64,000 nt of DNA from an uncultured Pseudomonadales bacterium (GTDB taxonomy: Bacteria > Patescibacteriota > Microgenomatia > UBA1400 > PJMF01). A model generated the notes under the pieces. It saw nothing but the letters and a program-made list of their open reading frames with translations. It searched no databases and was not told where the DNA came from. How positions within the stretch are numbered: the first letter of the stretch is position 1; each line of letters starts with the position of its first letter. The position numbers were made by a program, and so were the translations under genes. The DNA lies in contig CAZWKL010000004.1 in NCBI GenBank assembly GCA_964633875.1, forward strand, positions 1,971 to 65,970, given 5' to 3'. Shown here one piece after another: positions 14,440 through 56,636 of this stretch.

Positions 14440-14514
14440 GAAATTACCTCAACTGCTTTAGGCGGATAATAACACGGCCACTAACAGAGTACAATTGTCT
14501 CACAATATGTCAAT

Positions 14515-15789: not shown

Positions 15790-15834
15790 GGCGCGTGCAG
15801 GTATTATTACCGATCCACTGGCTATGTAAAGAGC

Positions 15835-18300
15835 CTATTCATTTTGGGAAAAGACGGATTGTTCAAAGTAATTGCTACTACCGATAGTGTAGTTTTCGTT
15901 GACAGTGTAGCGCTCGTACTGAACACTGCCGCTTTCATTGACCGGTCTGTTACAGTCGGCGCAGTAGAATTCGGTTACAGGGTCTTGGTAGAAAGTATGG
16001 GTTTCCAAGATTAAATCTTCCACTTCTGCTCCGTAAGGTGGTGGTAGGCCGGTGGTGGGGTCGATCCAGAACTCTTTTTCTGTCATTTGAGCCACAGAAG
16101 GCTTGGCTTCTTCCCAGAAGAGGTCGGTGCCTCGGACTGAACAGCGATTATTGTCTCCGGGAGGCATGCCGGTTAAGCACACCGGCGCGGATGCCACGTT
16201 TTCAGGCTTTTCCTGCCAAATTGGCTCGCGGTCGCGGAGGATGTAGCTCATGATGTCGTTCCAGATTGGCGCCGCGCCAGTTACGCCGGAAACCAAGCGT
16301 TGATTCATGGGCGTATTATCATTATTGCCTACCCAGGTGATAACCAAAAACTCCGGAGTAAAACCCACCGTCCAGTTATCCCGCAGGTCATTGGTGGTTC
16401 CGGTTTTCACACTCACCACTTGGTCGGGAATAACCAGCTGAGAGTTGGCTCCAAAAGCCATTCTTCTGGCATCATTGTCCTGCATGATGTGGCTGACCAT
16501 GTACGCGGGCGCCCGATCCATCACTCTTTGTAGCTCACCGGATTTTGAACGGCTGTCAGTTTGGTTGAGTTCAGTCAATCTTTCTTGGCGGTCTTCCGGT
16601 TTAACTTCATACAAAACTTTGCCGGTATAAGTTTCTACTTTTAGAATAGGAGTAAGGGGAACCTTGACGCCTTTGTTGGCCAAAACACCAAATGCCTGGG
16701 CCAACTCGATCATCTTCACTTCACCGCCACCAAGCGTCAAGGACAAACCATAGCGGGAAGGATCTTGCCAGGACTCAATGCCCATAGCGTTGGCTTGGTT
16801 AATAAAGTTCCTCAACCCCACTGTGCGCAAAGCTTTCACAGCCGGAATATTGAGTGAGTTACCCAAACTCTGTCTGACCGTAACCGGACCCCGAAAACCA
16901 CCATCATAATTTTTCGGACAATAGGGCGGTTGACCTGTTACTTCAAAACAAGTGGGAATATCCAAAAGTAAGCTGCCCGGATTAAGCACTTTTTCCTGCA
17001 TGGCAGTGGCATAGGTTATTGGCTTAATGGACGAGCCGGGTTGCCGGTTGGCTAAAGTCACATTAACCTGTCCTTCATCAGTGGCATTAAAGTAATCTTT
17101 GCTGCCGACCATACTGAGAATTTCGCCCGTGTCCGGTTTTACCACCATAGCTGCGCCATTGCCAACACGGTAATTAGCCAGGTTGGCAATCTCCGCCGAT
17201 ACCGATGCCTGAGCAGTGTTGTGCAGTTCAAGATCAAGGGTAGTGGTCACCCGCAGGCCACCCTTTTCCACTGTTTCCACCCCATACTCTTCGTACAAAA
17301 CATCACGGACATAAAAAACAAAGTGAGGCGCTTTAATATCAGTTCTGGAAAGGGCAAAAGCCAAAACTTCCTCGCCGGCGGCCTTTTCTTCATCGGCGGC
17401 AATATAGCCGTCTTCCCGCATTCTTCTCAAGACTTCCAGTTGTCGTCTCTTAGCTGCTTCCGGATTTGATCCAAAAGGCGAGTAAGTAGAGGGCGCCTTG
17501 GGCAACCCGGCCAGCAAAGCCGCCTCACCCAGCGTCAAATCTTGGGCGGACTTTTCAAAATAACTCCGGGCGGCCGCCTCAATTCCCACCGCGGTGCCAC
17601 CGTACGAAATATAGTTAAGGTACATTTCCAGGATTTCTTCTTTGGTGTAAATAGCTTCAGTAAAAACCGCCAGCACCCCTTCTTTAATTTTCCGGGTGAT
17701 GGTGCGTTCCTTACTCAACAAAGCATTTTTGACCAACTGCTGAGTGATGGTAGACCCACCCTCCAGCCTCTGCCCGCGTAAATTATTCAGCGCAGCCCGG
17801 GCAATGCCCTCCAGATCAAAGCCAATATGACGGAAAAAATTTTGGTCTTCAATAGCAATGGAAGCTTGATAGACATAGGGCGGCAAGGTTTCGATTTCAA
17901 TAGGAATACGGTTTTCGTTGGCATAAATTTCGTAGAGTAGCTCGCCGTGGCGGTCGAAAATCTGGGTGCTGACAGCATAGTTGTCGTTGTGGGTGAGCCG
18001 ACGGGGCGAAGGCAGTTCGTTAAGAATGTAGGCAAAGCCAAGTAAAAATAGCGCGAAAGCCAAGAGCGCTCCGTACCTTACTACAGGGTTGCTGAATAGA
18101 CGGATGGTGGTTTTGATGATTTTCATTATCAGTCTTAAAAATAGTCCTAAAAAGTCCTTAAGCCACACCAGCCATTTATTTTTTGACTGTCTCTGGCTTT
18201 TTTTGTCCCCTTCAAACAGGTTACGGACATTGGAAAGATGGGCAGCTAGCTGTTTATTTTTTTTGTTTTTCAAAGTTTTCATGTATGATGCGGCCATCAT
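15835..18300 (-). CDS. Class A penicillin-binding protein (PBP1A-type), copy 2
   Basis: EDQNFFRHIGFDLEGI and RLEGGSTITQQLVKN (GT51), with SSIKP/KTGTT transpeptidase motifs. Paralog of 12052..14439. Confidence 0.85.
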   Translation of the reverse strand: MMAASYMKTLKNKKNKQLAAHLSNVRNLFEGDKKSQRQSKNKWLVWLKDFLGLFLRLIMKIIKTTIRLFSNPVVRYGALLAFALFLLGFAYILNELPSPRRLTHNDNYAVSTQIFDRHGELLYEIYANENRIPIEIETLPPYVYQASIAIEDQNFFRHIGFDLEGIARAALNNLRGQRLEGGSTITQQLVKNALLSKERTITRKIKEGVLAVFTEAIYTKEEILEMYLNYISYGGTAVGIEAAARSYFEKSAQDLTLGEAALLAGLPKAPSTYSPFGSNPEAAKRRQLEVLRRMREDGYIAADEEKAAGEEVLAFALSRTDIKAPHFVFYVRDVLYEEYGVETVEKGGLRVTTTLDLELHNTAQASVSAEIANLANYRVGNGAAMVVKPDTGEILSMVGSKDYFNATDEGQVNVTLANRQPGSSIKPITYATAMQEKVLNPGSLLLDIPTCFEVTGQPPYCPKNYDGGFRGPVTVRQSLGNSLNIPAVKALRTVGLRNFINQANAMGIESWQDPSRYGLSLTLGGGEVKMIELAQAFGVLANKGVKVPLTPILKVETYTGKVLYEVKPEDRQERLTELNQTDSRSKSGELQRVMDRAPAYMVSHIMQDNDARRMAFGANSQLVIPDQVVSVKTGTTNDLRDNWTVGFTPEFLVITWVGNNDNTPMNQRLVSGVTGAAPIWNDIMSYILRDREPIWQEKPENVASAPVCLTGMPPGDNNRCSVRGTDLFWEEAKPSVAQMTEKEFWIDPTTGLPPPYGAEVEDLILETHTFYQDPVTEFYCADCNRPVNESGSVQYERYTVNENYTIGSSNYFEQSVFSQNE

Positions 18301-33920: not shown

Positions 33921-36900
33921 ATGGAAAAAAACACTCAAAAACCGACCGAACAAGCTCATAAATCCAACCAGAAAATTGTTCCTTCCATGTCTAAAAATCC
34001 CGTTAAAAAAACTGGTGCTAATGGTACTAATGGTGCTAAGAAAAACGACCAGCTGCTGCCAAAAATTGAGATGCCCATGAATGTGAACAATATTTACAAC
34101 AAGGGTCTTTTATATTTTATCCTGGGCACCATAGCGATGATTTTCTTTTTCTCGCTTTTTTCCTCTGAGCCGGCGCAAGAAATTTCTATCAGCGAGCTGG
34201 TCCAGGATATTCGGAACGAGCAGGTTGAAAAGATTGTTGTTTCCGGCGATGAGTTGCGCGCCACTTACTCGGACGAGAGTTTGCGCACTGTGCAGAAGGA
34301 ATCAGGCCAGAGCGCCGTGGAAATTTTTGAAGCGGCCAATCTTGATCTGGCCGAGGTTGAGCTTGAGGTGGAAGCTTTTTCGTTTGGCTCGATGATTTGG
34401 GAATTGGTGATCAGTTTGTTGCCGATTCTGTTGATGATCGGCTTTTTCTTTATTATTTTCCGTCAGGCTAAGGGCGGCCAGGCCGGCATTATGGGTATTG
34501 GCAAAAGCAAGGCGAAGCTGTTTGTTAAAGGCAAGCAGAACACTAGTTTTAATGATGTGGGTGGAATGGATGAGGCTAAAAAAGAGTTGGAAGAGGTAGT
34601 CGACTTTTTGAAAAATCCCAAAAAGTATGCCAAAGTTGGCGCCCGCACACCCAAAGGCGTGCTTTTAGTGGGCCCAGCCGGCACAGGCAAATGTGTCACA
34701 GGAGATACTATTGTTTGGACCAACAAAGGCTTGATGGAGATTAGGGAAATTCCCCGCTATTACTACGTTGATCCGCAATCGCATCAAGTTGCGGGAGCCG
34801 GATTGACTAGTTTTAACCTTGAAGACACTGTTGCCACCGATCAGCTTGCCTCACATTGGTACGATTTGGGTGAGCAGGAAACCATTAAGGTACAACTTAA
34901 ACAGGGTCTTTCTCTTGAGGGCACGCCAGAGCATCCGGTGGTGGTGATGACAAGTGAAGGTAAATTGAAATTTCGCCAACTCAAAGATCTGCAATTGGGT
35001 GATCAATTAGCAATTCAGTATGGCAGCCAGGCTTTTGGCAATCTTGATTTGGTAGATGAAGATACAGCGTACTTGATGGGGTTGCTAACGGGAGACGGCA
35101 ATATGAGCCACTCAAGTCGGGTTGGTTTGACCAACATCGACGATGAGATCATCACCTTTTTTAAACGGTTCGTTCTCGAAAGGTTTGGCGAAGCCAAGTT
35201 AACCAAGAACAATCAATCTTACCTAGTTTCTAATTGGGATTTTAAGCGCTATCTCTACCAGATGGGCATGTCCTACTTGCTCTCTTTTGACAAAGCAGTT
35301 CCTCCGACTATTCTCCAGGCTAAGAAAGCAGTGCAGGTCAAATTTTTACAGGGGTTATTTGATGCTGATGGGTCTATTGGCAAAACTCGGGCTGAGTTTG
35401 AGTACACTACCGTTAGCGAACGGATGGCACGACAGGTGCAGATGATGCTTTTGAATCTTGGGGTAGTGGCGAGTCTGAATGAGAAAGGCAGGGTTGCCAA
35501 CGGTTACAAGCGCCCTGTGTACAGAATTACTCTCACCGGGGATAGGTTGAAGGTCTTTGGCCAGCAGGTAGGTTTCATGCTCACCAGAAAACAACAGTTG
35601 CTCGAAGCTCATCTTGATAAGAAATTGAGCAGCAATACCAACATCGATATCATTCCTGGTATTTCACAGCTAATGGTGGAGGCCTGGACGAGCCTATCTG
35701 AGCAGCAACTCAGCCATGAAAAACTATCAAAGACAATTGATAAAGTTAGAAGAAGGTTGCGCGTTTCTAGAAACACCTTGACAGAGTTTGTGCGCTATTG
35801 TTCGGCGCTGGCTATCGAAGTGCCTCACCTCGAGTATCTGCGCAGTTTGCTTGAAGCCAACTTATTCTTTTCTCCAGTGGTGCAGATTCAGCCAGCCTAC
35901 AACCGCGTGTATGATTTTACTGTACCCAAGACCCACAGCTTTTTAGGTAATGGACTGATTAACCATAATACTCTGTTGGCCCGCGCAGTTGCCGGGGAAG
36001 CCAACGTTCAGTTTCTTTCGATTGCCGGCAGTGAGTTTATGGAGATGTTGGTGGGTGTGGGGGCTTCTCGGGTGCGGGATCTTTTCACTACGGCTAAAAA
36101 ATTGGCGCCCTCGATTATTTTCATTGATGAAATTGATGCGATTGGCCAAACCAGAGGTAAGGGGAGTTTTGGCGGCCATGACGAGCGCGAGCAGACTCTC
36201 AACCAAATCTTGGTAGAAATGGATGGCTTTGATCAAAACGACAACGTTATTGTCATGGCCGCCACCAACCGCGGCGACATGCTCGACGCTGCCCTGATTC
36301 GCCCAGGCCGCTTCGACCGGCGGGTGATGGTGCGCTTGCCCGATCTGGAAGAGCGCAAGTACATTATTTCCATCCACGCCAAAGGCAAGCCTTTTGCCAA
36401 AGAAGTGAAGTGGGAGAGAGTGGCCAAAAGAACGGTCGGTTTTTCAGGCGCCGATATCGAAAACATGCTCAACGAAGCCGCCATTGCGGTTGCTCGCGAA
36501 TCCAGAAAAGAGATTACCATGGAGGACATCGAAGAAGCGGCGCTCAAGGTTAAGTTAGGACCGAGTAAGAAACAACTTTCCAGCAAACTGGAGCGAACCA
36601 TGACGGCTTATCACGAAGCCGGCCACGCTATCGTTGCTCATGCTTCAGCCCATGCCGACGCAGTCACCCGGATTTCTATCGTTTCCCGCGGTCATGCCCT
36701 GGGTTTTACCGTCAGCTCTCCCGAGAGAGACAAGTTCCAAACCACTAAGTCGGAGTTACTTGATCGTATTACCGTTCTGCTTGGTGGCCGGGCGGCGGAG
36801 CAGATGATCTTCAATGAACAAACCGCCGGCGCAGGCAACGACATTGAAAGAGCCACCAGAATTGCCAGAGCCATGGTGGTGGAATACGGCATGAGTGAGT

Positions 36901-37220
36901 TGGGAGCCATGAACTATGCCCCGCTCTATGACAACGCCGATTATGGCAGATCCTGGAACGAACCACTGAGGATTTCTGACCGCTTGCAGGAGAAGGTTGA
37001 TGAGCAGGTTAATAAAATTATTCAAGAGGGTGAAAAACGGGCTGCTGAGCTCCTTAAAACTCATAAGAAAAAGCTGGATAAAGTTTCCAATCGATTGCTG
37101 GAAATAGAAACCCTTGATGGCGATGAGTTTGCCAGACTGATGGGTTTCAAAAAAATCAAAATTGATGACGCTTACGACTTAGCTGAAAACGGTACCAATG
37201 AAAGCGAAGACGAAGCTTAA
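33921..37220 (+). CDS. ftsH: ATP-dependent zinc metalloprotease FtsH, interrupted in-frame by an intein in the Walker A motif
   Basis: N-terminal TM pair, AAA module split as GPAGTGK | intein | [20 protein letters not shown] zinc site and a C-terminal helical region are present. 1099 aa total (673 aa without the intein). Confidence 0.85.
34692..35969 (+). mobile_element. Intein (426 aa) with a LAGLIDADG homing endonuclease domain, inserted after the FtsH P-loop Lys
   Basis: Block [10 protein letters not shown] and block B TPEHPV. Two LAGLIDADG motifs ([20 protein letters not shown]). C-terminal VYDFTV...LINHN with +1 Thr. Precise excision would restore [15 protein letters not shown]. Confidence 0.8.
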
Positions 37221-38227: not shown

Positions 38228-39322
38228 ATGAAAGTAGCGCTGGTTCACGACTATCTCCGGGACTATGGCGGCGCTGAGCGCGTGCTTGAAGCGTTGCACC
38301 GAATGTTTCCGGATGCGCCGGTGTATGTGGCTTTTGTGGATCGGCAAAAGCTGGGGATTCATTGGGAAAAGTTTGCTGATTGGGATTTACGCCAAAGTTG
38401 GCTGACTAGAATTCCTTTCTATAAAAAGCTCTTTTCACCTTTGCGAGTCTGGGCGCCCAATTATTTCCAAGCCTTTGATCTCAGCGATTTTGATTTAGTT
38501 ATTTCCTCGAGTAACGCCTATTTTTCCAAAGCGGTAAGAGTGCCCAACGGCACTCATGTTTGTTATTGCCACACACCCGCCCGCTCTTTGTATGGTTACA
38601 CCACCATGACGGATTGGCAGAAAAACTGGCTGGTGAAGCTGGGTGGCAACCTAATCAATCATTACTTGCGGGTGGTGGATTTTCAGATAGCGCGGAAAGT
38701 GGCTTATTTTATTGCTAATTCCCAGGAAACTCAGCGGCGGATTACCAAATTTTACCGCCGCGATTCAACCGTGATTTATCCGCCGATTGCAATGCCGGAA
38801 AAATTGCCGGCCCAGAAAAAGCTAGGCGATTACTACCTTCATGTTGGCCGGATTGCCAGAAGCAAGCACGTGGATCTAGCCATTGAAGCCTGTACCAAAT
38901 TGGGTTTACCGCTGAAAGTTGGCGGGGCTCAGGGTATTAGCCACCTGGAAAAATTAGCCGGGCCGACGGTGGAGTTGCTGGGCGAAGTGACTGATGAACA
39001 GTTGCAAGAACTGTACTCGGGCGCCAAAGCGCTCTTGTTTCCGGCAGAAGATGAAGATTTCGGCATGATTCCGGTGGAAGCCATGGGCTATGGGGTGCCA
39101 GTGATTGCTCACCGCTCCGGCGGACCCTTGGAAAGCATTGCTGAGGGTAAAACCGGCGTCTTTTTCGATGAGTTTACCCCCGAAAGTTTAGCCGCCGCCA
39201 TCAAGAAAGCAGACAAAATCAGTTGGGACCGCCGAAAAATTCACGCTCACGCCAAGCAGTTCAGCACCGCTGCTTTCGAAAAAAATCTCCGTCAATTCTT
39301 GAAGACTTTGTTGACAACTTAG
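38228..39322 (+). CDS. Glycosyltransferase family 4 (GT-B fold)
   Basis: C-terminal EDFGMIPVEAMGYGVPVIAHRSGG (the E-x7-E region). Confidence 0.65.
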   Translation: MKVALVHDYLRDYGGAERVLEALHRMFPDAPVYVAFVDRQKLGIHWEKFADWDLRQSWLTRIPFYKKLFSPLRVWAPNYFQAFDLSDFDLVISSSNAYFSKAVRVPNGTHVCYCHTPARSLYGYTTMTDWQKNWLVKLGGNLINHYLRVVDFQIARKVAYFIANSQETQRRITKFYRRDSTVIYPPIAMPEKLPAQKKLGDYYLHVGRIARSKHVDLAIEACTKLGLPLKVGGAQGISHLEKLAGPTVELLGEVTDEQLQELYSGAKALLFPAEDEDFGMIPVEAMGYGVPVIAHRSGGPLESIAEGKTGVFFDEFTPESLAAAIKKADKISWDRRKIHAHAKQFSTAAFEKNLRQFLKTLLTT

Positions 39323-40081: not shown

Positions 40082-40951
40082 ATGAATATGACAAAAAATA
40101 GCGAGAGCGATCATCCTGTGAGCAATGACAGTGTAGGCCGCTTCATGGTAGCCGTAGGAGCGATTGTCGAGCACGAAGAGACAGAAACGATCTTGCTGAT
40201 CAAAAGAGCGGGCGCTGATTATGCCAGTGGAGCTTGGGAAGTGGGGTATGGCAGGCTTGATCAAGGCGAAAATCCGGAAGCTGGCTTGAAGCGAGAGTTC
40301 AAAGAAGAAACCGGCCTAGATATTAAGCCAAAAAAACTTCTCAACACCTGGTTTTTTAATCGTGGTGACAAGGAAGCTGCAGAAAACGAAGTTATTGGCC
40401 TGACTTATTGGGCCACAGCCAGCAGTCAAAAAGTGAAACTTTCTTCTGAACATTCCGAGTATCAGTGGCTAAGTCCGGAAGCAGCGCTAGAGTTGGCAGA
40501 GCCAAAATTAATTGCTAACGAAATTAGAGCTTTTATTGAGGCTAAAGCAGCGGCAAAAGAAGCTCAAGCAGCGGATCAGGCCAGGCAAAGGGCTCTGGCT
40601 GATTATCACAACTTGGTTCGCCGCACTCAGGCGGAGCGCGGTGAGTACACCAAGTTGGCAGCCAGTCAACTGATTGAAGACCTGATCGAACCGCTGGAAC
40701 ACCTAAGTATGGCTGCTGAACAACTCGATGATGAGGGCCTGACTATGGTGGTATCGCGGTTGTGGACAGTGTTGCACAGTCACGGTTTGGAAGAAGTCGA
40801 GGCTTTGGGCCGGGAATTTGCTGTCGAAACCATGGAAGCGGTGGATAAAGAAAACGGTGGCGACGTGGTGATTAAGGTCTTGCGGCGCGGCTATATTTTG
40901 AACGGCAAAGTTATTCAGCACGCCAAGGTTGTTTTGGGCGCTGATAACTAA
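40082..40951 (+). CDS. grpE: Fusion protein: NUDIX hydrolase domain plus GrpE nucleotide-exchange-factor domain
   Basis: Residues about 20-150 carry a Nudix box (GRLDQGENPEAGLKREFKEETGL). Residues about 165-289 align with GrpE (DYHNLVRRTQAE coiled-coil, LIEDLIEPLEHL, VIKVLRRGYILNGKVIQHAKVVL). Sits between hrcA and dnaK. Confidence 0.75.
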   Translation: MNMTKNSESDHPVSNDSVGRFMVAVGAIVEHEETETILLIKRAGADYASGAWEVGYGRLDQGENPEAGLKREFKEETGLDIKPKKLLNTWFFNRGDKEAAENEVIGLTYWATASSQKVKLSSEHSEYQWLSPEAALELAEPKLIANEIRAFIEAKAAAKEAQAADQARQRALADYHNLVRRTQAERGEYTKLAASQLIEDLIEPLEHLSMAAEQLDDEGLTMVVSRLWTVLHSHGLEEVEALGREFAVETMEAVDKENGGDVVIKVLRRGYILNGKVIQHAKVVLGADN

Positions 40952-43932: not shown

Positions 43933-44640
43933 TCAACTAAAAAGAGTTTCTTCGTTGAGAATAGAAATTTCCGCTGTTGACTCAGCTGTTTTAATTGATG
44001 AAGTGAGCGCAGTCAGGTTTTGGTAATCAGGAATCCAAGCCAGAAAATAATATACTGATTTTTTCCCTGATGTATCAACTCTTTTCAATTCCAGCCCTGA
44101 AGTAAAAGGAGTGATCAAGTTGGTAATGGCGGTCAGTTGGTTTTCGGAATTGTTAGTGACGATTTCAAGGTACATTTTTTCGTGGTTGTTGAGGCCGGGC
44201 AGCGTCAGTCTGCCCCCCACCAGCTCACGCAAAACCAAAAAAGCCATGGTTACCACATAAAAGCCAATTGTCACGTCCCGCTGCCCGGCCCCCATGCCCA
44301 AACCCAAAGCAATAGTCAGGAAAATATAAGCCAGCTCTTCCGGTTCTTTAATAGCGGAGCGGAACCGGACAATAGAAAGCGCACCCACCAACCCCAGTGA
44401 CAGCGCAATAGAGGAGCGAATAATACTAATAATCATCATGGTAGTGATAGCTAGCAAAGGAAAAAGCGCCGCCAGCCGCCTCCGGTTTGAGAGCGCGTGA
44501 CCAAACCGCCGGTAAACATAGGCCAAAATTTCTGTCATCAAAATCAACAAAAGAGTGTTGATTAAAAACTCACCCAGATCGGGCATGGAAAAAACCATGT
44601 CCACTTGTAGCAGGTCGGCAATTCTTTGCATATTAGGCAC
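43933..44640 (-). CDS. DUF4956-like membrane protein
   Basis: N-terminal trio of TM helices plus a C-terminal soluble domain. The call leans on co-location with the CotH and VTC genes. Confidence 0.45.
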   Translation of the reverse strand: MPNMQRIADLLQVDMVFSMPDLGEFLINTLLLILMTEILAYVYRRFGHALSNRRRLAALFPLLAITTMMIISIIRSSIALSLGLVGALSIVRFRSAIKEPEELAYIFLTIALGLGMGAGQRDVTIGFYVVTMAFLVLRELVGGRLTLPGLNNHEKMYLEIVTNNSENQLTAITNLITPFTSGLELKRVDTSGKKSVYYFLAWIPDYQNLTALTSSIKTAESTAEISILNEETLFS

Positions 44641-44669
44641 TTCTTTCTAAAGCTTTCAAAGTAAGTATA

Positions 44670-46580
44670 CTAAAAAATTCCTAAGTTGAGGTACTCAAAC
44701 CATTGCTTTTTCCTAAATACAGCTTTGAATTCTTCTTGATTGTCTATTCTCAAGACCACGCGCTTGTCTTTTTTCCTCCGCTCAAGCACTTCTCCTTCCC
44801 AGTGATCAAAAACGTAATCCCTGGCAGGGTGAGCTTCGATGGCCATGTATGAATTAGTAAAAAACGTCCCTTGCCAGGGCAGCTCTTCACTCAGTTTATG
44901 AATCGCGCCTATACTAACCGCTCCACCCTCAGGCGGCTCACTCTTGAGGGTGATATAACTCAGACCTGGCAGATCATAAAAATCAGCCGTATCTTCAAAC
45001 ACGGCTTGGTGTCGGTGCTGAGCATAAACTTTCAGAAACTCAATTTGCTGCTCCCATTCTTCCTGAGTGGGAAAAACTTGTTCGGCCTGCTCATCTCTCC
45101 AACGCGCCACTTGGGCAGGCATTTCCGGTCGAATACTGGCCGCCAGCTGGTCAATAACTGTCATGACATACTCAGGTGAAAACTGATCGTTAAAAAGTTC
45201 AGCTGTTCGAGTCAGATATTCTTGCTTAACTTTGCTGTCGAAAAAAAGATTCATAAAGGGGAATTTGTTGTCGGAAAGACGATTATAGAGGTCATTTTGC
45301 GAACTCTTAATTACATCCTCAACAGTTTTCTTCTGATGAGCAAGGCCAACATCAAGATCGTAAAAAATCCAACGAAACCGGCCGTCAATGCTGCTTAATT
45401 CTTCTGGAGTTGCCCGCGCTGGCCGTTCGTAGCGCCAGAGCTTCACATTGCCAAATGGCCAATCAAAATTGCCTGAATAAAACTCAAAAATCATGTAATC
45501 AATGAAATTGGTAATATCAAAATTGACTGAGAATTCACTGTAATGAGCGCAGGAGGAGCAGTGTTGAGCAGCTTCAAAAAGGGTATTGTAATCATCCACT
45601 GCCTTGTTGTTGCCATAATCAAGCCGAGTTTTGCCGCGATCAACACCCACATCATGAGGAATTTCAATAATGCTTACCCGATTTTTGGAAATTCCGTACT
45701 TGTTAGCCAAATAATGCTGATCAATGCGTTCTCTGAGGAAATAAACACCCCAATATTCGCCGTTAAGATAGACTACCGCCGGTCTGACTGCCTGAGTATC
45801 AATGTCTGTCAGGTCAGACGCCAAAGTGTGCAGGAGAGCATCGCGGATGTAGCCGTGTTGCCAGTCGGTCGCTCCGGTCCTCAGCAGAAAGGTATTAAAC
45901 TTGGTGTAGTCAAGTTCAGGAAAAATGGGGTAATTAATTTGATCGGAATGGTTGAGGTAGCCGGCGTAAATGCGGAAGGATTTTTGGGGTAAACCAGTGC
46001 TGCCGCCGCCATGAATTCGCAGACCGATATCTTTTTGGAAACCGAGCCGGCCGTCAGGTTCGTAGAATGACAATTGAGCCGGCCGTTCCCACTCATCACC
46101 CTCTTCTTCAAAATTGACATAAATACCTCGCTCTTCATCCCAGAGATTTTCCGGATTGGTAGCGATATTGATCACTGCGATTTCGTGGTTGGTTTGGATA
46201 AAAACCGGAAAAGTATTAATTTTACCTACCTGTTGATTATTTCGAAAAGCCGCCGCCCGAATCGTGGTGGTTTTTTCTATCGAGATTGGCTCTTCATAGC
46301 GGCTGCTGGCCGTTGTCGGCTCAGAACCGTCAAGGGTGTAGTGGATTGCCACCGGCAGCAAACCGGAAGAATTGAGGGAAATTGCCGCCGGCTCGTTAAA
46401 AAAAGCCTCTTTTGGTGTCATGACAATATTAGTTTGCGGGCTGCCCATCAACAATAGTAAGCCTATAAAAAATAGGATGAGAATAGTCAGATAAACTACT
46501 TGAGAATGGCGCATGATTGAGAGCGGTTTTGTTGAGGTAGGTTTTTGGATAATCATAGAATAATGAGATGCGGATAACAC
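44670..46580 (-). CDS. CotH-family protein (atypical protein-kinase fold), membrane-anchored
   Basis: 636 aa with a signal-anchor and a LRIHGGGSTGLPQKSFRIYAG region resembling the CotH N-terminus. An alternative start at 46514 avoids the overlap with the VTC gene. Confidence 0.45.
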   Translation of the reverse strand: MLSASHYSMIIQKPTSTKPLSIMRHSQVVYLTILILFFIGLLLLMGSPQTNIVMTPKEAFFNEPAAISLNSSGLLPVAIHYTLDGSEPTTASSRYEEPISIEKTTTIRAAAFRNNQQVGKINTFPVFIQTNHEIAVINIATNPENLWDEERGIYVNFEEEGDEWERPAQLSFYEPDGRLGFQKDIGLRIHGGGSTGLPQKSFRIYAGYLNHSDQINYPIFPELDYTKFNTFLLRTGATDWQHGYIRDALLHTLASDLTDIDTQAVRPAVVYLNGEYWGVYFLRERIDQHYLANKYGISKNRVSIIEIPHDVGVDRGKTRLDYGNNKAVDDYNTLFEAAQHCSSCAHYSEFSVNFDITNFIDYMIFEFYSGNFDWPFGNVKLWRYERPARATPEELSSIDGRFRWIFYDLDVGLAHQKKTVEDVIKSSQNDLYNRLSDNKFPFMNLFFDSKVKQEYLTRTAELFNDQFSPEYVMTVIDQLAASIRPEMPAQVARWRDEQAEQVFPTQEEWEQQIEFLKVYAQHRHQAVFEDTADFYDLPGLSYITLKSEPPEGGAVSIGAIHKLSEELPWQGTFFTNSYMAIEAHPARDYVFDHWEGEVLERRKKDKRVVLRIDNQEEFKAVFRKKQWFEYLNLGIF

Positions 46581-47236
46581 AAAGACATCCCTTGCACGTA
46601 TTTTGACGACTTACTTAATCTAAAAGGAAAAAAGTTACTGATTTGTGCCGCCAGTTTTTCCGCTTCAAGGGCATATTTTAACTCGACAATAGTGTGAGGC
46701 AAGGTTTGCCGGGGGGTTTGTTGCCGGCTGCTTTTGGGGTGATCAAAGCGCAGGTTGGAGTCGACCGTTAGCCGCACCAGCCCATCGGCGGTAACGTAAT
46801 ACTGCCGCAGGTAGGCGTTTTTTAGCACCGGCCGGTACAGGCCGGCTTGTTCAAAGAAAAATTGGCTGTCTGTTTGAGCGATTTTCACCGGCAGCTTTGG
46901 TTGTTTTCTCAAGTCTGGGTCCACAGTCCTAGTACTTTTAGAGACCACTTCACCTTCTTTAGTTTTAATTTCCAGCGCGGTTTGACTCATGGCCTCAAAA
47001 TCGCCATACCAGCGCAAGCGAACTTTCTTTCTCGGACTGACGCCAGCCACATTTTCCCTCAAGTGAGCAAAATCAGTGGTGTCAAAGTAAGTATTGTTGA
47101 CTTGCCTGTCGGGATAAGCTTGCCTAAAGTGTCCGGGATGAGTGCGAAGCAAAGACGGCATGGCCAGAGCTTGTTCATAGCTGAGCACAAACTTTTTCTC
47201 AAACCTGGCTTCACGCACGGCAGCATCAGTAGGCAT
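46553..47236 (-). CDS. VTC-domain (polyphosphate polymerase/CYTH-like tunnel fold) protein
   Basis: RFEKKFVL...TVDSNLRF...HTIVELKY...SKY matches the VTC domain pattern. Confidence 0.6.
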   Translation of the reverse strand: MPTDAAVREARFEKKFVLSYEQALAMPSLLRTHPGHFRQAYPDRQVNNTYFDTTDFAHLRENVAGVSPRKKVRLRWYGDFEAMSQTALEIKTKEGEVVSKSTRTVDPDLRKQPKLPVKIAQTDSQFFFEQAGLYRPVLKNAYLRQYYVTADGLVRLTVDSNLRFDHPKSSRQQTPRQTLPHTIVELKYALEAEKLAAQISNFFPFRLSKSSKYVQGMSLCYPHLIIL

Positions 47237-47278
47237 ATACTTGCTTATTTTAACATTGAACTAACAGTTTTGAGAGCA

Positions 47279-47300
47279 GCCTTGACCCAGCCTTGACCCA
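47279..47300 (+). repeat. Perfect tandem direct repeat (GCCTTGACCCA)x2 in the divergent VTC/nusA promoter region
   Basis: Two adjacent identical 11-mers, each containing the -35-like TTGACC. Confidence 0.5.
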
Positions 47301-47421
47301 GACGCAGCTTGCATCTCTCCTCCAGATGAAGTACAATAAAGAGCGATGATGATGGAGGGCTCGGTAGTGGAGTCCTTTTTTGATCAACTTGATGAAATCA
47401 CTTGTATAAATAAAGGAAATT

Positions 47422-50491: not shown

Positions 50492-52603
50492 CTACTCATA
50501 ACGCAGAGCATTGAGCGCCGAGATGCGGGTTGCTCTTTTGGCTGGATACCAACCGGTAAAGATCCCCACCATGATCGAGAGGAAAATGACTAACATGACG
50601 AAGCCAAGAGGAATGGCGGCTACGTCTAAAAAGCCCAACCCATGACTGACTGAAATGGTTGAGAGCAGCAAGCTCACCAGCTTGCCAGCCAGATAACCTA
50701 AGCCAATGCCCAGTACACCGCCATAAAAACCCATGATCATCGACTCAGTCAAGAAAAGCTCTTTGACTTCCCTTTCTTTCATACCCATAGCTTTCATTAG
50801 ACCAACCTCCCTGGTGCGCTCCAAGAGCGAGACAGTGAGGGTGTTGAACATGCCGAGCGCGGCGACCGTGAGAGCAACCATGCCAATCACTCCCATAATC
50901 AGGCGAAAGGTAGAGAAAAGGTTGTCGATTTGTGCCACCGTGTCGACCACCGAAACCGTGCCATAGCCCATAGCCTCGATAGTAGCCCGAACCTGAGGCA
51001 GCACCTCTTGGCTTGTAGTGATGATTTTGAGTTGCGAAAACCGGTTGATGCCCAAAGAACGCAACTCTGCAAAAGGCACGTAGATGACCGGCGTGTCCTC
51101 CTCTGGCGTGACCCCGACGATCTCGTATTGAGTAGGGACGGACTCGATCCGCTCTAGTTCTCCCTCAATCAACTCACCCACAGCCACAAAGCTCAAGCTG
51201 ATTTTTTGTCCAACAGCATTAGATTCCTCAAGGCCCAAAACGGATAAGACCGCTCGATTGACTACCGCCTGCCTCAGAGACCCGGGTGGCAACTCTACCA
51301 ACTTGGGTTGTTCGGTGGGTTCTATGGTGACCGAGTTCATATCGATTAGCTCCAGCGAGCCATCAGAATAATTGGGCGAGGTCTGAATGTTGGTACCAGT
51401 AGCGGTTCCGGCAGCAGCGCTGGTACCAGTACCGGACAAGGCGGGAGTGCTGGCCGCCGCCGAGTCAAGCTGTGTTTCCAGGCCGGTCAGAACTTGCAAA
51501 TTAAGCTGGGCTACAAACCCAACCATCACCAGCGGATTATCAGCCGAGTCTAACATCGGGATGTAGCTGCCGGCCTCACAATTCGGATGATATTCTAGTT
51601 GCTCCGCGGCGGACGCCGCGGCATCATTGCTGCAAGGCGACTGCCGCCACAAAGGAAAACTCGCGCGAATCCAGACGGCCAGGGGTTGATCGGCGCTGCC
51701 AGCTTGGGGGCCGGTATAGCCTGCAAAATAATCCCCGTACACGGCAGTGCCGGTGAAATCGGCCTCACCTACTCTGGTGTAGCCCAAGACTTGTTCGTTG
51801 GTAGAAGGGCCGCCGCGGACTCTGATCCAACTACCTGGATTGATGCTAAAGCTCACTGGCCCAATTTCTTGGCTGAAGCTGGCTTCAAGCACGGCAGGGG
51901 CATCATCGGCTTGAGTTTCTACTTCACCTTCACTGGTGACTGTTAATTCTTCTATAGGGCTGACTACTTCGTGACTTTCAAAGATTTTTCCTTGCACTGG
52001 TTGAATAGCAGAGTTGGTTAGGTACGCCGTTGTGACGCCGTAAACCGCCAAATCAGTTACGGATTCATGGAGAGAAGCTCTGCCCACCACACTAATGAGC
52101 GGCAAAGCCTCTTGCACTGTTGGCAGGTTGGTAAATCTAGCCAAAACCTCATCATTGAGAGCCAGTTCATCACTCAAGCCCGGCACTACCTCGGCTTGGC
52201 TCAGTTCTTCCAGTCGCGCTACTCGGCTAGTGACTAAGTGTTGCAAACCGTAGCCCACCGACACCAAGAAAACAATAAAAGCCACGCCAATAGCCATGCC
52301 GCCGATAGTAATGGCGGTACGGGTACTTTTGGATCGCATGTTGCGAAACGACAGCTCAATGAGATAGCCGCGACTGAGGGTGCCGTTACTACCATCTAGT
52401 TGGTGATTGAGGCGGTCATAGAGCTTGTTGGCGGCGCGCTCGAAAATAGTGAATGGCCTGGTCCACCAGGCTTTAGAGGTGGTGAGCGCGACCGCAAAGA
52501 CTTTGAGCGAATAAGCAATCACCAGGAGCAAAAAACTGGTACTGCGCCGCAAGACCTTGATTAGACGACTAATTCTGCTGGTAAAGATGTTGATAAACTG
52601 CAT
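50492..52603 (-). CDS. ABC transporter permease, FtsX/MacB-like, with a large extracytoplasmic domain
   Basis: N-terminal TM, a periplasmic region of about 450 aa, and a C-terminal FtsX-type four-TM domain. Confidence 0.75.
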   Translation of the reverse strand: MQFINIFTSRISRLIKVLRRSTSFLLLVIAYSLKVFAVALTTSKAWWTRPFTIFERAANKLYDRLNHQLDGSNGTLSRGYLIELSFRNMRSKSTRTAITIGGMAIGVAFIVFLVSVGYGLQHLVTSRVARLEELSQAEVVPGLSDELALNDEVLARFTNLPTVQEALPLISVVGRASLHESVTDLAVYGVTTAYLTNSAIQPVQGKIFESHEVVSPIEELTVTSEGEVETQADDAPAVLEASFSQEIGPVSFSINPGSWIRVRGGPSTNEQVLGYTRVGEADFTGTAVYGDYFAGYTGPQAGSADQPLAVWIRASFPLWRQSPCSNDAAASAAEQLEYHPNCEAGSYIPMLDSADNPLVMVGFVAQLNLQVLTGLETQLDSAAASTPALSGTGTSAAAGTATGTNIQTSPNYSDGSLELIDMNSVTIEPTEQPKLVELPPGSLRQAVVNRAVLSVLGLEESNAVGQKISLSFVAVGELIEGELERIESVPTQYEIVGVTPEEDTPVIYVPFAELRSLGINRFSQLKIITTSQEVLPQVRATIEAMGYGTVSVVDTVAQIDNLFSTFRLIMGVIGMVALTVAALGMFNTLTVSLLERTREVGLMKAMGMKEREVKELFLTESMIMGFYGGVLGIGLGYLAGKLVSLLLSTISVSHGLGFLDVAAIPLGFVMLVIFLSIMVGIFTGWYPAKRATRISALNALRYE

Positions 52604-52604
52604 T

Positions 52605-53387
52605 TTATAAATCCTCGACGATTTGGTTGGTTAATGGCGGCTTGCCGCCAGCGCGTTTCAAGTCGTTGCTTTTACTTTTCCTCGCAGCGGGATTGGTGAG
52701 TTCTTGAATAATTTCTCCATCCAGCATCTCCAAAGCTCTTTTAGCAAAACTTAAATACTCCAGGTCATGGGTGACCATAATGATGGTTTTCCCTTGGCTA
52801 TTTAGATCTTTAAGCAATTTCATCAGTTGCCGGCCGGACTCATAATCGAGGTTGCCGGTTGGCTCATCAGCGATGAGGATGGTTGGATCAGTGACAATGG
52901 CTCTAGCCAAGGCCACCCGCTGTTGTTGGCCGGAAGAAAGCTCGGTGGGGATATAGTCGCTCCAGTCCACCATGCCCACTTGTTCCAGGGCGGTGTGAGC
53001 TTTTGCCGCTGCTGCCGGCTCGGTTAGGCCAGTGAGGCGCAGAGCAAACATCACATTTTCTTTGGCAGTGAGTGACTTAATCCAGTTTGGCTGCTGATAA
53101 ACCATGCCGATTTGGTGTTTGCGCAGTTCAGCTCGATCATCTTCTGTCAAGTTATCGTAAAGCGACTGACCTTGAAAAACCACCTTGCCGCTGGTGGGTT
53201 GCTCCAGTCCCAAAATGGTATGGAGCAAGGTGGATTTGCCGCAACCGGACGGGCCAAAAATGACCAAAAATTCACCAGTTCTGACGGCAAAATTGATATT
53301 TTTTAGCACCGTCACCGCTTGAGACTTGACGGAAAAGGTTTTGCCCAGGGTTTGTGCTGAAATAATGTCGGTATGATGAGTTGGCAT
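52605..53387 (-). CDS. ABC transporter ATP-binding protein (MacB/LolD family)
   Basis: Walker [10 protein letters not shown], signature LSGGQQQRVA, Walker B ILIADEPT. Confidence 0.85.
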
Positions 53388-53435: not shown

Positions 53436-56400
53436 CTACTGCCTCAACAGCCCCAAAAAGCTGAAGGCAGAAGCTAGATTTTCAATGACTAAATCGAAGG
53501 CTGATCGGGTAGCTTTGGGCGCGATAGTGGTGACGTCAATACTGCGAGCTTCGTTGCCGGCGGCGTCTTTGGTAATGGCCCGCAGATGATAAACTTGGCT
53601 GGGTGTGAGCCCAGAGATAATGACGGTGTGGTTGGTGGTGAGGTTGCCGTCTTCTTGAGTTTTTTGGCTGTAGCTGCCGCCGGTACCGGCCCCAAACTCG
53701 ACTTGCGAAGTGGCTGGTTCGTCAGTATCCCAGGTGACAACCAACTGAGCCTTGATGTCTCCAGCCGCAAAGCCCACTGGTGGGATAGTACCGCCAATTA
53801 CCTTGAGGTTGATAATCTGCGGCGGCCTGGTATCGGTAGCAGTAGTGAAGTTGAAGGTGTCGGAAACGGCTTCGTTGCCAGCTCGATCTCTACCCTTGAC
53901 CACCAACTGATATTGCTGTTGGGGCAGCAAACCGGAAACTGTCATTTGGTGCTCGCCGCCTCTGAGTTCAACATTAACTTCATCCCGGGCGGCGCTAGCC
54001 TGACCAGTTGGATAGTAACTTACCACTGAGGACATGGGTGTATTGACACTCCAGCTCACCAGCACCGTTGTCTGGGCACTGCCGGCAATTTCCTGCAAGC
54101 GGACATTGCTGATGCGCGGACGCGGCATAGTTTCAAAAGTCAAAGCCTGACCTTCATACTCAAAGCCTTCGCTGTCTACAGGATTAACCTTGTAGTAGTA
54201 GAGGCTGCCATCCTCAAGTTCTGTGAGTTCAGTAGTGAGGGTGACTTCTTCTCTGGAGGTGGCCACTTCTAACATCCCGCCAAAAGCAGTGCTTCTGCCG
54301 TAGTAAATCTTGACGCTGCTGGCTCCCTTAACAGTGTAGCGTAAAATGGCGTTACTCAGGCCAATTTGAGTGGCTTGAGGATCAGTGACAGTTGGTGCGC
54401 TTTCGGTTGTAAATCTTTTTTCTTCACTCTTGCCAGTGTTGCCGTCCTCATCTGTCCAGCGCGCTTGGTAATAGTAAGTTGTGCCAGGCAATAAATTAGT
54501 TAAGTTAATTTTGTGATCGGTTACTTGAGAGGAGTTGGAAGGCTCTTCATCAAAATAATCGCCCGATTTGGTGCCGTAAGCGATTTTGGAATCACTGTCA
54601 CGGTTGGTAGTCCAGATAATTTCGGCTTTTCTGGTGGTAATGGTTTTCACCTCTGGGCCGGAAGTAAGTTTGGCCGGATCAGAAAAACTACCTTTGGGTG
54701 TGAGGGCCACCGCGTTGGTGTAGGAAGGGTTGGCAATTGAGTCGGCACTGGTGTCACTGGTGCCGATGCGCCAGAAGTATTGACGTGAGTCATCCACGGT
54801 ATCGACATAGGCGGTGCCTGAGGTAGTAGTGATAGTCGTCCATGATTGGCCATCTGATGAGCGCTGGATGGTGTAGGTTAAGTCTCCGGTACCTCGATAA
54901 TCAGGATGATCCCAGGCCAGTGAGGCTCGCCAGAGAGAGGCGGCCTTGATTGAGGCGTCGGAAGCGGTAAGATTTTTGGCTGGATCAGGAAGGTCGGAAT
55001 CTAGAGTGAAATTACCGAAAATAAAGTTACTGGATGAGTAATTGTCTTCATCGTCTACCGCCACAACTCGGACGATGTTGTTGTCTTTTTGAACTCCTGG
55101 CAACATACCGGCAGCAACCGAGGTGCTAGTGGTAGGAATGTAGGTACCAGGATTGTTGCGGAGAGTGGCCAGCGTTACCGGCGGGGTGGTGTTGATCATA
55201 TAAAAGTATTGGGCTACAGTCTGTCCTTCGTCCGGTTGGGCTGCCGGCCAGGAAAGAGCAAACTCGTTGCTGGTGTTGATGTTGGGGGTGACGGTGACGA
55301 CAGCTCCTCCCTCAAAAATTGGCGCGTCACCGCCATAAGCCAGGCTGCCGGTGCGGTAGGTAGCGGGCGGAGAGGTGTTACCCGCTTCATCAACGGTTCT
55401 AAAGTAAATGATATTATCACCAATTTCGATCAAATCTCCATCCCGCTCGTCGGTCAGGTAGTAAGGTTGTTCCAAATTCAAGGCCGGGATAAAGTCGATA
55501 CCGAGTGTCGGATGAGTTTCACTGCCAAGCCAAGTATCGGTGTCCTTGATAGCATACTGCCACCCGAGCACGCCGGAATGTACATCACTGCTGGCCGCGC
55601 TGGCCGCGGGAGGATTAGTCGGCCAGGAAAAGTTCATGTCGGCGACGTTGTTGAAGGTCCCGGAGGCAGGATTAATAAAAGCGACATTATTAGGCGCCAC
55701 GCTATCAAAAGAGAAGCTCAGGCTGGCAGCAGCAGCACCGCCGCTCTCACCCTGATTGTAGGTATTGCCAGCCTGATCAATAGCTTTAATGCGCAGATGA
55801 TAGGTTGTCCCGTTTACAAAACTGCTAGCCAGGTAATCTCCGGCTGACAAGTCCAGGCTGGTGCCGGCCACTATAAACTGGCAGGGTGTACCAACAGTGT
55901 CTAGGGGTGAGTTGATTAGCAGGCCAGAGGTGCCCGCTTCACTCACATGGTTTCCCGGATCGGCGTCTGCTTCAGTACCAAGGTACAGACAGTAGCCTTT
56001 CAAACCTGTGCCAGCCTCATCGTCAGCGCCAGAGTCCCAGCTAAAGTACGGCGCAAAGCTGTTCGACCAGCCCCCATTGAGAATGATGTGGCCGCTGTCT
56101 GCTGATTGCATACTAATGTTGCTGGCATTTACCTCTGGTTCAACTGTGTCTATAGGCAGATCAGCGTCGATACTCACCCCCGGACTAGTAAAGTTGATCC
56201 AGCCTATGTCCTCGGAAAAGCCGTAGCCACTGAAAGTGCCGGTGTCCAGATCTATAGTTACATTGCTGTTGTAATCGCTAAAATCCAGATAGGCGGCGGT
56301 ATTCAACACGTAAGCTTTGCCCGCCAACAAACCAGTGTCTGGATCGTAAGTAACTGGGCCACTCGGGTTGTTGTCCGCTCCAAAAGCCACCCAGCCTAAG

Positions 56401-56636
56401 TCTTCCGAAAAGACATAGCCGGAAAACTTATGATGGGTCATGTTGATGTAAACTTGAGAGTTGTATTCGTCAAAATCCAGGAAGGCGCCAGTGTTTTCGA
56501 CTAAAGCTCGGCCAGTGACAGGAAAACTGGCCGCATGGACCAAAGGGCGAACCAAAAAGACCAACGCCAAAGCAGCCAACAAAAAAGCAGCGCTGGCCAC
56601 ATAGCGAACCCTGGTGTTTAGTAACACAAATAACAC
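53436..56636 (-). CDS. Large secreted/surface protein with N-terminal duplicated YLDF..YNS..FSGY.FSED.GW repeats and multiple fibronectin-III-like domains
   Basis: 1066 aa with a signal peptide. Internal repeats (AFLDFDEYNSQVYI...FSGYVFSEDLGWVAF and AYLDFSDYNSNVTI...FSGYGFSEDIGWINF). The Thr/Ser-rich beta-domain composition typical of Fn3. Confidence 0.6.
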   Translation of the reverse strand: MLFVLLNTRVRYVASAAFLLAALALVFLVRPLVHAASFPVTGRALVENTGAFLDFDEYNSQVYINMTHHKFSGYVFSEDLGWVAFGADNNPSGPVTYDPDTGLLAGKAYVLNTAAYLDFSDYNSNVTIDLDTGTFSGYGFSEDIGWINFTSPGVSIDADLPIDTVEPEVNASNISMQSADSGHIILNGGWSNSFAPYFSWDSGADDEAGTGLKGYCLYLGTEADADPGNHVSEAGTSGLLINSPLDTVGTPCQFIVAGTSLDLSAGDYLASSFVNGTTYHLRIKAIDQAGNTYNQGESGGAAAASLSFSFDSVAPNNVAFINPASGTFNNVADMNFSWPTNPPAASAASSDVHSGVLGWQYAIKDTDTWLGSETHPTLGIDFIPALNLEQPYYLTDERDGDLIEIGDNIIYFRTVDEAGNTSPPATYRTGSLAYGGDAPIFEGGAVVTVTPNINTSNEFALSWPAAQPDEGQTVAQYFYMINTTPPVTLATLRNNPGTYIPTTSTSVAAGMLPGVQKDNNIVRVVAVDDEDNYSSSNFIFGNFTLDSDLPDPAKNLTASDASIKAASLWRASLAWDHPDYRGTGDLTYTIQRSSDGQSWTTITTTSGTAYVDTVDDSRQYFWRIGTSDTSADSIANPSYTNAVALTPKGSFSDPAKLTSGPEVKTITTRKAEIIWTTNRDSDSKIAYGTKSGDYFDEEPSNSSQVTDHKINLTNLLPGTTYYYQARWTDEDGNTGKSEEKRFTTESAPTVTDPQATQIGLSNAILRYTVKGASSVKIYYGRSTAFGGMLEVATSREEVTLTTELTELEDGSLYYYKVNPVDSEGFEYEGQALTFETMPRPRISNVRLQEIAGSAQTTVLVSWSVNTPMSSVVSYYPTGQASAARDEVNVELRGGEHQMTVSGLLPQQQYQLVVKGRDRAGNEAVSDTFNFTTATDTRPPQIINLKVIGGTIPPVGFAAGDIKAQLVVTWDTDEPATSQVEFGAGTGGSYSQKTQEDGNLTTNHTVIISGLTPSQVYHLRAITKDAAGNEARSIDVTTIAPKATRSAFDLVIENLASAFSFLGLLRQ

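Follow-up and report, generated by a model that had tools for sequence, protein, structure and literature searches.

The 64,000-nucleotide stretch of contig CAZWKL010000004.1 analyzed here (the window) carries, on its minus strand at 43933-47236, three consecutive genes that encode a VTC-family protein, a CotH-family kinase, and a DUF4956-family membrane protein. These genes almost certainly constitute a self-contained operon, combining a VTC-type tunnel enzyme, an external CotH with a type II membrane anchor, and a five-helix MgtC-like DUF4956 protein with a cytoplasmic ACT/PII-like domain. The adjacency of the three genes is far beyond chance, since their order is kept in four relatives with unrelated flanks and both partners accompany DUF4956 in 45 of 54 well-flanked loci. 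All three proteins score above their Pfam thresholds, and both the open reading frames (ORFs) and the family assignments agree with a preliminary description of this DNA that had been made from the sequence letters and translations.

Conservation of the trio was surveyed by scanning one genome per species with the DUF4956 profile. The 80 loci considered are the best DUF4956 matches and not a random sample. They come from about ten phyla, namely Bacteroidota, Chloroflexota, Verrucomicrobiota, Planctomycetota, Gemmatimonadota, Myxococcota, Bdellovibrionota, Acidobacteriota, Chlorobiota, and the Alpha- and Gammaproteobacteria, Pelagibacteraceae among them. A VTC gene adjoins DUF4956 in 66 of these 80 best matches. 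Among the 54 well-flanked loci, which have at least 4 kb on either side, a VTC gene is present in 50, a CotH-like gene in 48, and both in 45, which bears out the linkage of the three families that the preliminary description mentions. The gene order varies: DUF4956-CotH-VTC is found in 21 well-flanked loci, CotH-DUF4956-VTC in 12, and DUF4956-VTC-CotH in seven, alongside others. Within the survey, the order of the window, VTC-CotH-DUF4956, is confined to its own clade. The persistence of the trio through such rearrangement argues for functional coupling of its members.

Many of the surveyed loci contain an ORF of 2.5-3.7 kb between DUF4956 and VTC. Pfam identifies this ORF as a divergent CotH in six of ten sampled cases, and with an iterated CotH profile it is detected at almost all loci. 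The distant CotH-like calls rest on a hidden Markov model iterated three times, and a few of them may be drift; conservation of the G/N/G/E/D/N/D columns in the distant proteins supports their homology. A hydrophobic N-terminal segment occurs in 74 of the 83 CotH-like partners, and a transmembrane (TM)-like segment in 0 of the 72 VTC proteins from the surveyed loci.

Four close relatives, whose CotH proteins are 37-56% identical to that of the window, keep the VTC-CotH-DUF4956 order amid unrelated flanking genes. In L002 the trio is flanked by a PIF1 helicase and an integrase, and in L003 by a sortase and a patatin. In L088 and L089 it lies within clusters of GT2/GT4 transferases, a Wzx-like flippase, PMT_2 and PTPS_related proteins, and epimerases. 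Further surveyed loci carry Wzy_C, GT4, GT2 and DegT genes, and the trio is often found among surface-glycan genes.

The three families have been described before, as accessory genes without an explained role. The pelDEADAFG operons of streptococci, clostridia and bifidobacteria are contiguous with a set of such genes, comprising cotH, DUF4956, DUF4832 and a gene for a polyphosphate polymerase, and a regulation of Pel synthesis through protein phosphorylation has been suggested (Whitfield et al. 2020, PMC7112168). In S. intermedius, deletion of either the DUF4956 or the CotH gene reduces aggregation by more than 50% in sputum medium, and the Pel level rises upon deletion of the DUF4956 gene and falls upon deletion of the CotH gene (mBio 2025, PMC12345266). 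The authors of the latter study were unable to find the trio outside Pel loci. Contrary to their report, the trio is common outside such loci in many phyla. The preliminary description was correct that the co-occurrence had been noted in bacteria and left functionally unexplained; our literature search returned no functional study that gives the trio a mechanism. Whatever its mechanism, the trio is an autonomous cassette, independent of the pel operon, and the genome that keeps it looks otherwise stripped to genes for housekeeping and the envelope. The window thus provides a new stand-alone member that is ordinary for the family, and the family itself is widespread and truly unexplained, with a mechanism that can be tested and might prove important.

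The three ORFs of the window are tightly packed, without meaningful gaps (Table). The VTC stop codon and the CotH start codon overlap by 4 nt in the tetranucleotide ATGA, and this arrangement reads as translational coupling of the two genes. The preliminary description gave a 636-aa CotH overlapping the VTC gene. The overlap is confirmed, while the length should probably be revised: CotH most likely starts at ATG 46556 rather than at GTG 46580, because of the ATGA overlap and because the public gene call for an identical protein (P0001) is 628 aa long. A gap of about 35 nt separates CotH from the DUF4956 gene, which probably starts at ATG 44631. The operon is divergent from nusA-infB and convergent with dnaK-dnaJ, and its promoter is presumed to lie in the intergenic region between the VTC and nusA starts.

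This intergenic region contains an exact 11-nt tandem direct repeat, GGTCAAGGCTG x2 (minus-strand reading), at 47277-47298, which is 41-62 nt upstream of the VTC start codon. Its 11-nt period is reminiscent of tandem-binding response-regulator sites. No conserved copy of the repeat precedes VTC in L002 or L003. An assignment as a Pho-box-like regulator site was dropped, given this lack of conservation and an enrichment that was only marginal.

The VTC protein matches PF09359 over profile positions 2-234 of 235 (E=7e-27, 94.9 bits against a cutoff of 23). Alignment to Vtc4 through a profile of bacterial homologues equates R11 with R196, K15 with K200, R73/R75 with R264/R266, K91 with K281, Y142/R144 with Y359/R361, and R155 with R373. 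E185 and S211-K212 fall at the positions of Vtc4 E426 and S457-K458; these were mapped via an alignment to Vtc2 and the published equivalence of Vtc2 I522 with Vtc4 K458. In Vtc4, K200, R264, R266, K281, Y359, R361, E426, S457 and K458 bind Mn-triphosphate and are needed for polyphosphate synthesis, and K458 alone among these nine residues differs in the inactive Vtc2/Vtc3 (bioRxiv 10.1101/2023.01.27.525886). All nine catalytic tunnel residues are present in the window protein, with K212 as the equivalent of K458. They are invariant in 29 aligned VTC homologues and, except for one Y-to-F replacement at Y142, in 148 further representatives, a diverse set at no more than 50% identity.

The AlphaFold2 (AF2) model of the VTC protein (pLDDT 81) has a closed beta-barrel tunnel fold that is nearest to Vtc4. 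Its best PDB matches are the Vtc4 structures 3G3R/3G3Q (E about 1e-12, TM-score 0.68-0.73), and the first 13 matches are all VTC subunits (3G3R, 3G3Q, 7YTJ, 8I6V, 9UMG; TM-score 0.64-0.73). Triphosphatases and class IV cyclases rank below Vtc4; the matches include YgiF, AtTTM3, class IV adenylate cyclases and thiamine triphosphatase. Hydropathy analysis revealed no hydrophobic or TM-like segment, and the protein is therefore predicted to be cytoplasmic. As a single Pfam domain of 227 aa, it has neither an SPX domain nor fused C-terminal transmembrane channel helices. The 150 best representatives of the family are likewise all single-domain proteins, of 216-285 aa, and the family comprises 14,022 clusters at E<=1e-3.

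The CotH protein matches PF08757 over profile positions 1-321 of 322 (E=3e-48, 165.4 bits against a cutoff of 23.8). It is composed of an N-in/C-out signal anchor, a glycan-binding-like domain, the kinase domain, and a beta-rich C-terminal tail. The family profile matches B. cereus CotH (5JD9), and the motifs NFDxxxxN (D373, N378) and WDYD align. D373/D408 correspond to B. subtilis D228/D251 (same 23-residue spacing in Bacillus), and mutation of either D228 or D251 inactivates the B. subtilis kinase. D373 and N378 are invariant in our alignment A3, and D408 is at least 90% conserved. The window CotH is of the canonical Asp type, and the retention of the catalytic residues answers a check that the preliminary description had proposed. 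A single-sequence PDB search with the window CotH gave no match, and 5JD9 was reached by the profile only. The profile also matches the Fn3_assoc/CHB_HEX_C_1-type domain in the beta-hexosaminidase 6Q63 and in 8AYR. Hydropathy supports the membrane anchoring that had been described for this protein, in the form of an N-terminal signal anchor. Since the single N-terminal helix follows a positively charged N-terminus, the catalytic part of CotH is predicted to be located outside the cytoplasm. Domains of the Fn3_assoc/CHB_HEX_C_1 type are accessory domains typical of extracellular glycoside hydrolases.

Most CotH partners in Bacteroidota, Proteobacteria and other groups belong to a divergent subfamily of 850-1000 aa with a C-terminal beta-helix (L005-L084; for example L005:8596-11208, L039:8591-11500 and L079:8666-11446), whose members often score under the Pfam CotH threshold. 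His takes the place of the catalytic Asp in 49 of 85 partner sequences, within the motif xYH-GxxW-HNxRF...YNP. Both types occur together in some Bacteroidota loci (L007:9249-14839, and also L008, L031 and L061), arranged as DUF4956-VTC-CotH(D)-Wzy_C-CotH(H), so that the Asp- and His-type proteins are separated by an O-antigen ligase-like membrane protein, Wzy_C.

The DUF4956 protein matches PF16316 (E=3.5e-16, 59.8 bits against a cutoff of 30.6). In its AF2 model (pLDDT 85.7), five TM helices, rather than the three given in the preliminary description, are followed by an ACT/PII-like domain. Only this C-terminal domain finds matches in a Foldseek search against the PDB, and these are weak (PII-like SbtB, ACT, CutA). 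The family core SxALSLGLVGALSIxRFRxAIKEPEEL is essentially invariant and is present in the window protein. Positive charges in the loops 47-52 and 92-98 argue for an N-out, C-in topology, in which the Arg/Lys-rich end of the core is predicted to face the cytoplasm. The similarity to MgtC is weak and remote. With DUF4956 as the query, the MgtC models remained far below threshold (PF02308, 15.8 bits against 31.4; NF007431, 20.8 against 214), and these sub-threshold matches agree with the "MgtC-like plus ACT" description in PMC12345266. In Chloroflexota, DUF4956 proteins (L030:7260-8615, L056:858-2459) carry an N-terminal extension of about 230 aa that matches 3-keto-disaccharide hydrolase, a lectin-like jelly roll. 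Such an extension fits an extracytoplasmic N-terminus and a link to glycans.

Table. Positions of the trio genes, their domains and key residues, and the adjoining intergenic region in the window.
Feature	Position	Strand	Basis
VTC protein, 227 aa, stand-alone domain	46553..47236	-	Pfam PF09359
CotH-family kinase, 628 aa (636 aa if from GTG 46580)	44670..46556	-	Pfam PF08757
DUF4956 membrane protein, 232 aa from ATG 44631 (235 aa from GTG 44640)	43933..44631	-	Pfam PF16316
ATGA, overlapping VTC stop and CotH start codons, 4 nt	46553..46556	-	direct sequence reading
Divergent intergenic region, VTC start to nusA start	47237..47421	.	sequence reading
VTC tunnel residues R11, E13, K15, R73/R75, E89, K91, Y142, R144, R155	K15 47192-47194; R73/R75 47012-47020	-	profile alignment
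VTC tunnel residues, C-terminal part: E185, K187, S211, K212	E185 46682-46684; K212 46601-46603	-	profile alignment
CotH transmembrane anchor QVVYLTILILFFIGLLLLM, aa 19-37 of the 628-aa form, preceded by K/R/H residues	46446..46502	-	hydropathy and positive-inside count
CotH Fn3_assoc / CHB_HEX_C_1 domain, aa 60-125	46206..46403	-	Pfam, E=3e-16 and 1e-15
CotH kinase core	45003..46022	-	alignment to 5JD9
CotH catalytic residues (636-aa numbering): Asp D373, Asn N378, metal-binding Asp D408	D373 45462-45464; N378 45447-45449; D408 45357-45359	-	alignment to 5JD9
DUF4956 TM helices, five: aa 22-46, 53-74, 77-95, 100-117, 121-141	44218-44577	-	AF2 model
DUF4956 invariant cytoplasmic loop RFRSAIKEPEEL	44332-44367	-	family alignment
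DUF4956 C-terminal ACT/PII-like ferredoxin-fold domain, aa 154-229, beta-alpha-beta-beta-alpha-beta	43954-44181	-	AF2 model

We tentatively propose, as a possible mechanism, that the VTC protein synthesizes polyphosphate, which crosses the membrane through DUF4956 and serves CotH as a donor for modifying surface glycans or proteins. The trio would then be a bacterial counterpart of the eukaryotic VTC machine to which a kinase has been added. On the inner side of the membrane, the VTC protein would build polyphosphate from the gamma-phosphate of ATP, and DUF4956, probably oligomeric, would take up the chain and carry it through, with its invariant Arg/Lys-rich cytoplasmic loop as the chain-receiving site. 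Outside, CotH may use the exported phosphoanhydride donor for phosphorylation or polyphosphorylation of surface glycans or wall proteins, and its N-terminal glycan-binding-type domain would keep the kinase near its substrate. We infer this supply line from the combination of a complete cytoplasmic tunnel enzyme, a linked membrane protein, and a kinase located outside, where ATP is lacking. Glycans are suggested as the substrate class by the recurrence of glycan-synthesis neighbors and by the glycan-binding-type domains on CotH and on the Chloroflexota DUF4956. The eukaryotic VTC complex, which couples polyphosphate synthesis with membrane passage (bioRxiv 10.1101/2023.01.27.525886), is a precedent for such a mechanism. 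The phenotypes of the S. intermedius CotH and DUF4956 deletions support it as well.

Several observations weigh against this proposal. No CotH is known to accept polyphosphate, and the only characterized CotH, from B. subtilis, uses ATP inside the mother cell. DUF4956 has no detectable similarity to the VTC membrane channel, and its sole remote relative, MgtC, is a regulator and is not known as a channel. No VTC-DUF4956 fusion was found in the surveyed loci or among the 150 best VTC representatives. (Long ORFs considered as candidates for such fusions proved to be stop-to-stop artefacts or N-terminal lectin-like fusions.) The beta1 motif of the bacterial VTC proteins is R-x-E-x-K with an invariant E13, where Vtc4 has T198; the retention of this CYTH-type Glu could point to a hydrolase or other tunnel chemistry. 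Furthermore, deletion of the S. intermedius VTC gene (SIR_1593) has no reported phenotype (PMC12345266), which does not fit VTC as an obligate supplier of fuel. The preliminary description had suggested that the module may make or use extracytoplasmic polyphosphate or nucleotide polyphosphates to phosphorylate surface substrates. This suggestion is reasonable and consistent with the predicted topology and the intact catalytic residues; the same VTC deletion speaks against a strict dependence.

The proposed role of protein phosphorylation in Pel regulation (PMC7112168) raises the alternative that CotH is an ATP-dependent regulatory kinase that phosphorylates components of an envelope or exopolysaccharide machine, while VTC and DUF4956 sense phosphate or energy status and no polyphosphate is exported. 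The ACT/PII-like domain of DUF4956, which is of a ligand-binding kind, and the remote likeness of this protein to the regulator MgtC are in line with such a role, as are the opposite shifts of Pel upon DUF4956 and CotH deletion (PMC12345266), which look more like regulation than a linear pathway. However, the predicted topology puts the catalytic domain of CotH outside the membrane, with ATP normally unavailable there, a strictly conserved and complete polymerase-type tunnel is hard to square with VTC as a mere sensor, and no synthase operon adjoins the trio in the window. We regard a purely regulatory kinase as unlikely. It is also conceivable that the VTC protein is a triphosphate-tunnel hydrolase or cyclase, and that it makes or breaks down a small phosphorylated molecule, be it triphosphate, a cyclic nucleotide or a nucleotide polyphosphate, which the ACT/PII-like domain of DUF4956 reads as a signal. 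The invariant E13 occupies the CYTH metal-binding position that is Thr in Vtc4, the fold also matches the hydrolases and cyclases listed above, the C-terminal domain of DUF4956 matches that of PII-like SbtB proteins, which have adenine nucleotides and cAMP as ligands, and a second CYTH protein is inserted into the module in four loci. Nevertheless, both in sequence and in fold the polymerase Vtc4, and no hydrolase, is the best match, the first Glu of ExExK is replaced by Arg, as in Vtc4, and the equivalent of K458, which is required for polymerization, is invariant. Such a signaling enzyme seems quite improbable.

A cytoplasmic polyphosphate reserve made by VTC is another option, with the MgtC-like DUF4956 tuning phosphate or ATP homeostasis and CotH being a co-regulated surface protein without polyphosphate chemistry. 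Polyphosphate is a general store of phosphate and energy, and MgtC affects phosphate uptake and ATP synthase (cited in PMC12345266). In addition, no gene of the polyphosphate kinase (PPK) type is visible in the 64-kb window, so that VTC could be the cell's source of polyphosphate. This scheme does not account for a CotH that is secreted or anchored and yet stays linked in 48 of 54 loci despite several rearrangements, for the translational coupling of VTC and CotH, or for the setting among surface-glycan clusters, and we give it little credence. Finally, a fortuitous adjacency of three unrelated genes is effectively refuted by the neighborhood survey. A Eubacteriales CotH of the same architecture (P0088) is solitary, without the trio, so that not every CotH is part of one. 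However, the linkage persists in different phyla and gene orders, the VTC stop codon overlaps the CotH start, and the trio relocates as a unit, which leaves chance a negligible share.

Comparison with known systems places the trio closest to several of them in part. Like the window, the Gram-positive pel accessory genes (S. intermedius SIR_1594, SIR_1593 and SIR_1592) have the same three families side by side, with a secreted or external CotH, a DUF4956 described as an MgtC-like TM domain plus ACT, and a VTC described as a polyphosphate polymerase domain. In contrast, the trio of the window has dnaK-dnaJ and nusA-infB as flanks instead of pelDEADAFG or a DUF4832 hydrolase. Pfam listings of the window genes, which span positions about 2,000-64,000, contain no pel-type genes, and the contiguity with pelDEADAFG/DUF4832 is absent. 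The gene order also differs, being VTC-CotH-DUF4956 in the window and CotH-VTC-DUF4956 in the pel accessory set. Whereas the window CotH has an N-terminal Fn3_assoc/CHB_HEX_C_1 domain, the pel-type CotH has a C-terminal FN3. Clostridium perfringens NELoc-2 (CP4_0460-0468) similarly has VTC-domain genes, small membrane proteins (annotated "tubulin/FtsZ") and a CotH gene next to one another. A chitin-synthase-like glycosyltransferase adjoins them, and the module is duplicated around a resolvase in this virulence-associated island.

The eukaryotic VTC complex (Vtc4/Vtc3/Vtc1; PDB 3G3Q, 7YTJ, 8I6V) shares with the window the Pfam VTC tunnel, with nine of nine residues and the best fold match, and the obligatory association with a membrane partner. 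Conversely, the window protein is a bare domain of 227 aa without SPX or fused TM helices and has RxExK in place of RxTxK. Its partner DUF4956 is unrelated to the VTC channel, and an external kinase is added. The Bacillus spore-coat kinase CotH (5JD9/5JDA) has the same Pfam family, catalytic Asp, Asn and metal-binding Asp as the window CotH. It is a soluble protein of 360 aa in the mother-cell cytoplasm that phosphorylates CotB/CotG with ATP. The window CotH, unlike it, is anchored and extracytoplasmic, carries glycan-binding-type and beta-rich domains, and has no cotB/cotG partners; no sporulation genes were found in the Pfam listings of the window. MgtC/SapB proteins (Salmonella MgtC) resemble DUF4956 in having a five-helix membrane domain followed by a cytoplasmic ACT-like domain, with weak similarity over helices 2-5. 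DUF4956 differs in its own invariant RFRxAIKEPEEL loop, and MgtC has no linkage to VTC or CotH. MgtC regulates ATP synthase and PhoR (cited in PMC12345266). The Pfam listings of the 64-kb window include no PPK-type, polyphosphate kinase or polyphosphate phosphatase genes, and the PADLOC models of anti-phage defence gave no meaningful match for the components of the trio.

If the mechanism proposed here is right, it would answer both what bacterial VTC-domain proteins do and what the phosphoryl donor of secreted CotH kinases is. It would also amount to a new kind of surface-glycan modification, with a bearing on the biofilm matrix (Pel) and on host interaction. A broader claim, which we consider doubtful, is that a VTC-type polymerase docked on a DUF4956 channel forms a widespread energy-exporting machine, a non-homologous analogue of the eukaryotic VTC complex, with exported polyphosphate as the phosphoryl donor with which CotH-family enzymes decorate glycans or proteins of the surface. 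If true, this would explain how kinases can act outside the cytoplasm, and it would add a third bacterial route to polyphosphate besides PPK1 and PPK2, from small-genome bacteria to SAR11 (Pelagibacteraceae).

Additional genes accompany the trio at some of the surveyed loci. A calcineurin-like phosphoesterase (Metallophos) gene lies beside it in 20 of the 80 loci (e.g., L046:3897-4865, minus strand) and is absent from the window; its product is a candidate phosphatase or polyphosphatase partner of the trio. The second triphosphate-tunnel protein (Pfam CYTH) is located between DUF4956 and CotH in its four loci (for example, L010:8621-9505 and L062:8662-9546). At L003:5853-6935 and L088:10779-11852, which represent two related lineages, the trio is accompanied by a polytopic membrane protein of about 360 aa that belongs to no Pfam family. 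The two proteins have the motif EISWGQRIF in common and are 31% identical (E=7e-31), and there is no homologue in the window.

Elsewhere in the window, the glycan gene closest to the trio encodes a GT4 glycosyltransferase (38228-39322). A surface-type protein of 1063-1066 aa with FN3/Big_13 and Pur_ac_phosph_N-type matches is encoded at 53436-56636 (-) and is adjoined by a MacB-like ABC transporter pair (50492-53387); these genes lie 3-9 kb from the trio. The FtsH gene at 33921-37220 (+), encoding 1099 aa, is split by an intein that carries a LAGLIDADG homing-endonuclease domain, whereas FtsH of the L002 relative has 641 aa and is uninterrupted. In the hrcA-grpE-dnaK-dnaJ cluster, the 289-aa GrpE product (40082-40951, +) also has a NUDIX hydrolase domain (Pfam NUDIX and GrpE). 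At 12052-18300 (-), two class A penicillin-binding proteins (Transgly and Transpeptidase) are encoded on either side of a GH18 chitinase-like gene, and nearby genes encode DUF5667 and DUF5657 proteins, PilN/PilO, and a class II ribonucleotide reductase with NrdR. The genes present in the window would suit a small-genome lineage, for instance one of the Candidate Phyla Radiation (CPR). A 5S rRNA gene is present at the very start of the window, at 160-277 (+), and an rRNA operon is therefore probably located just upstream.

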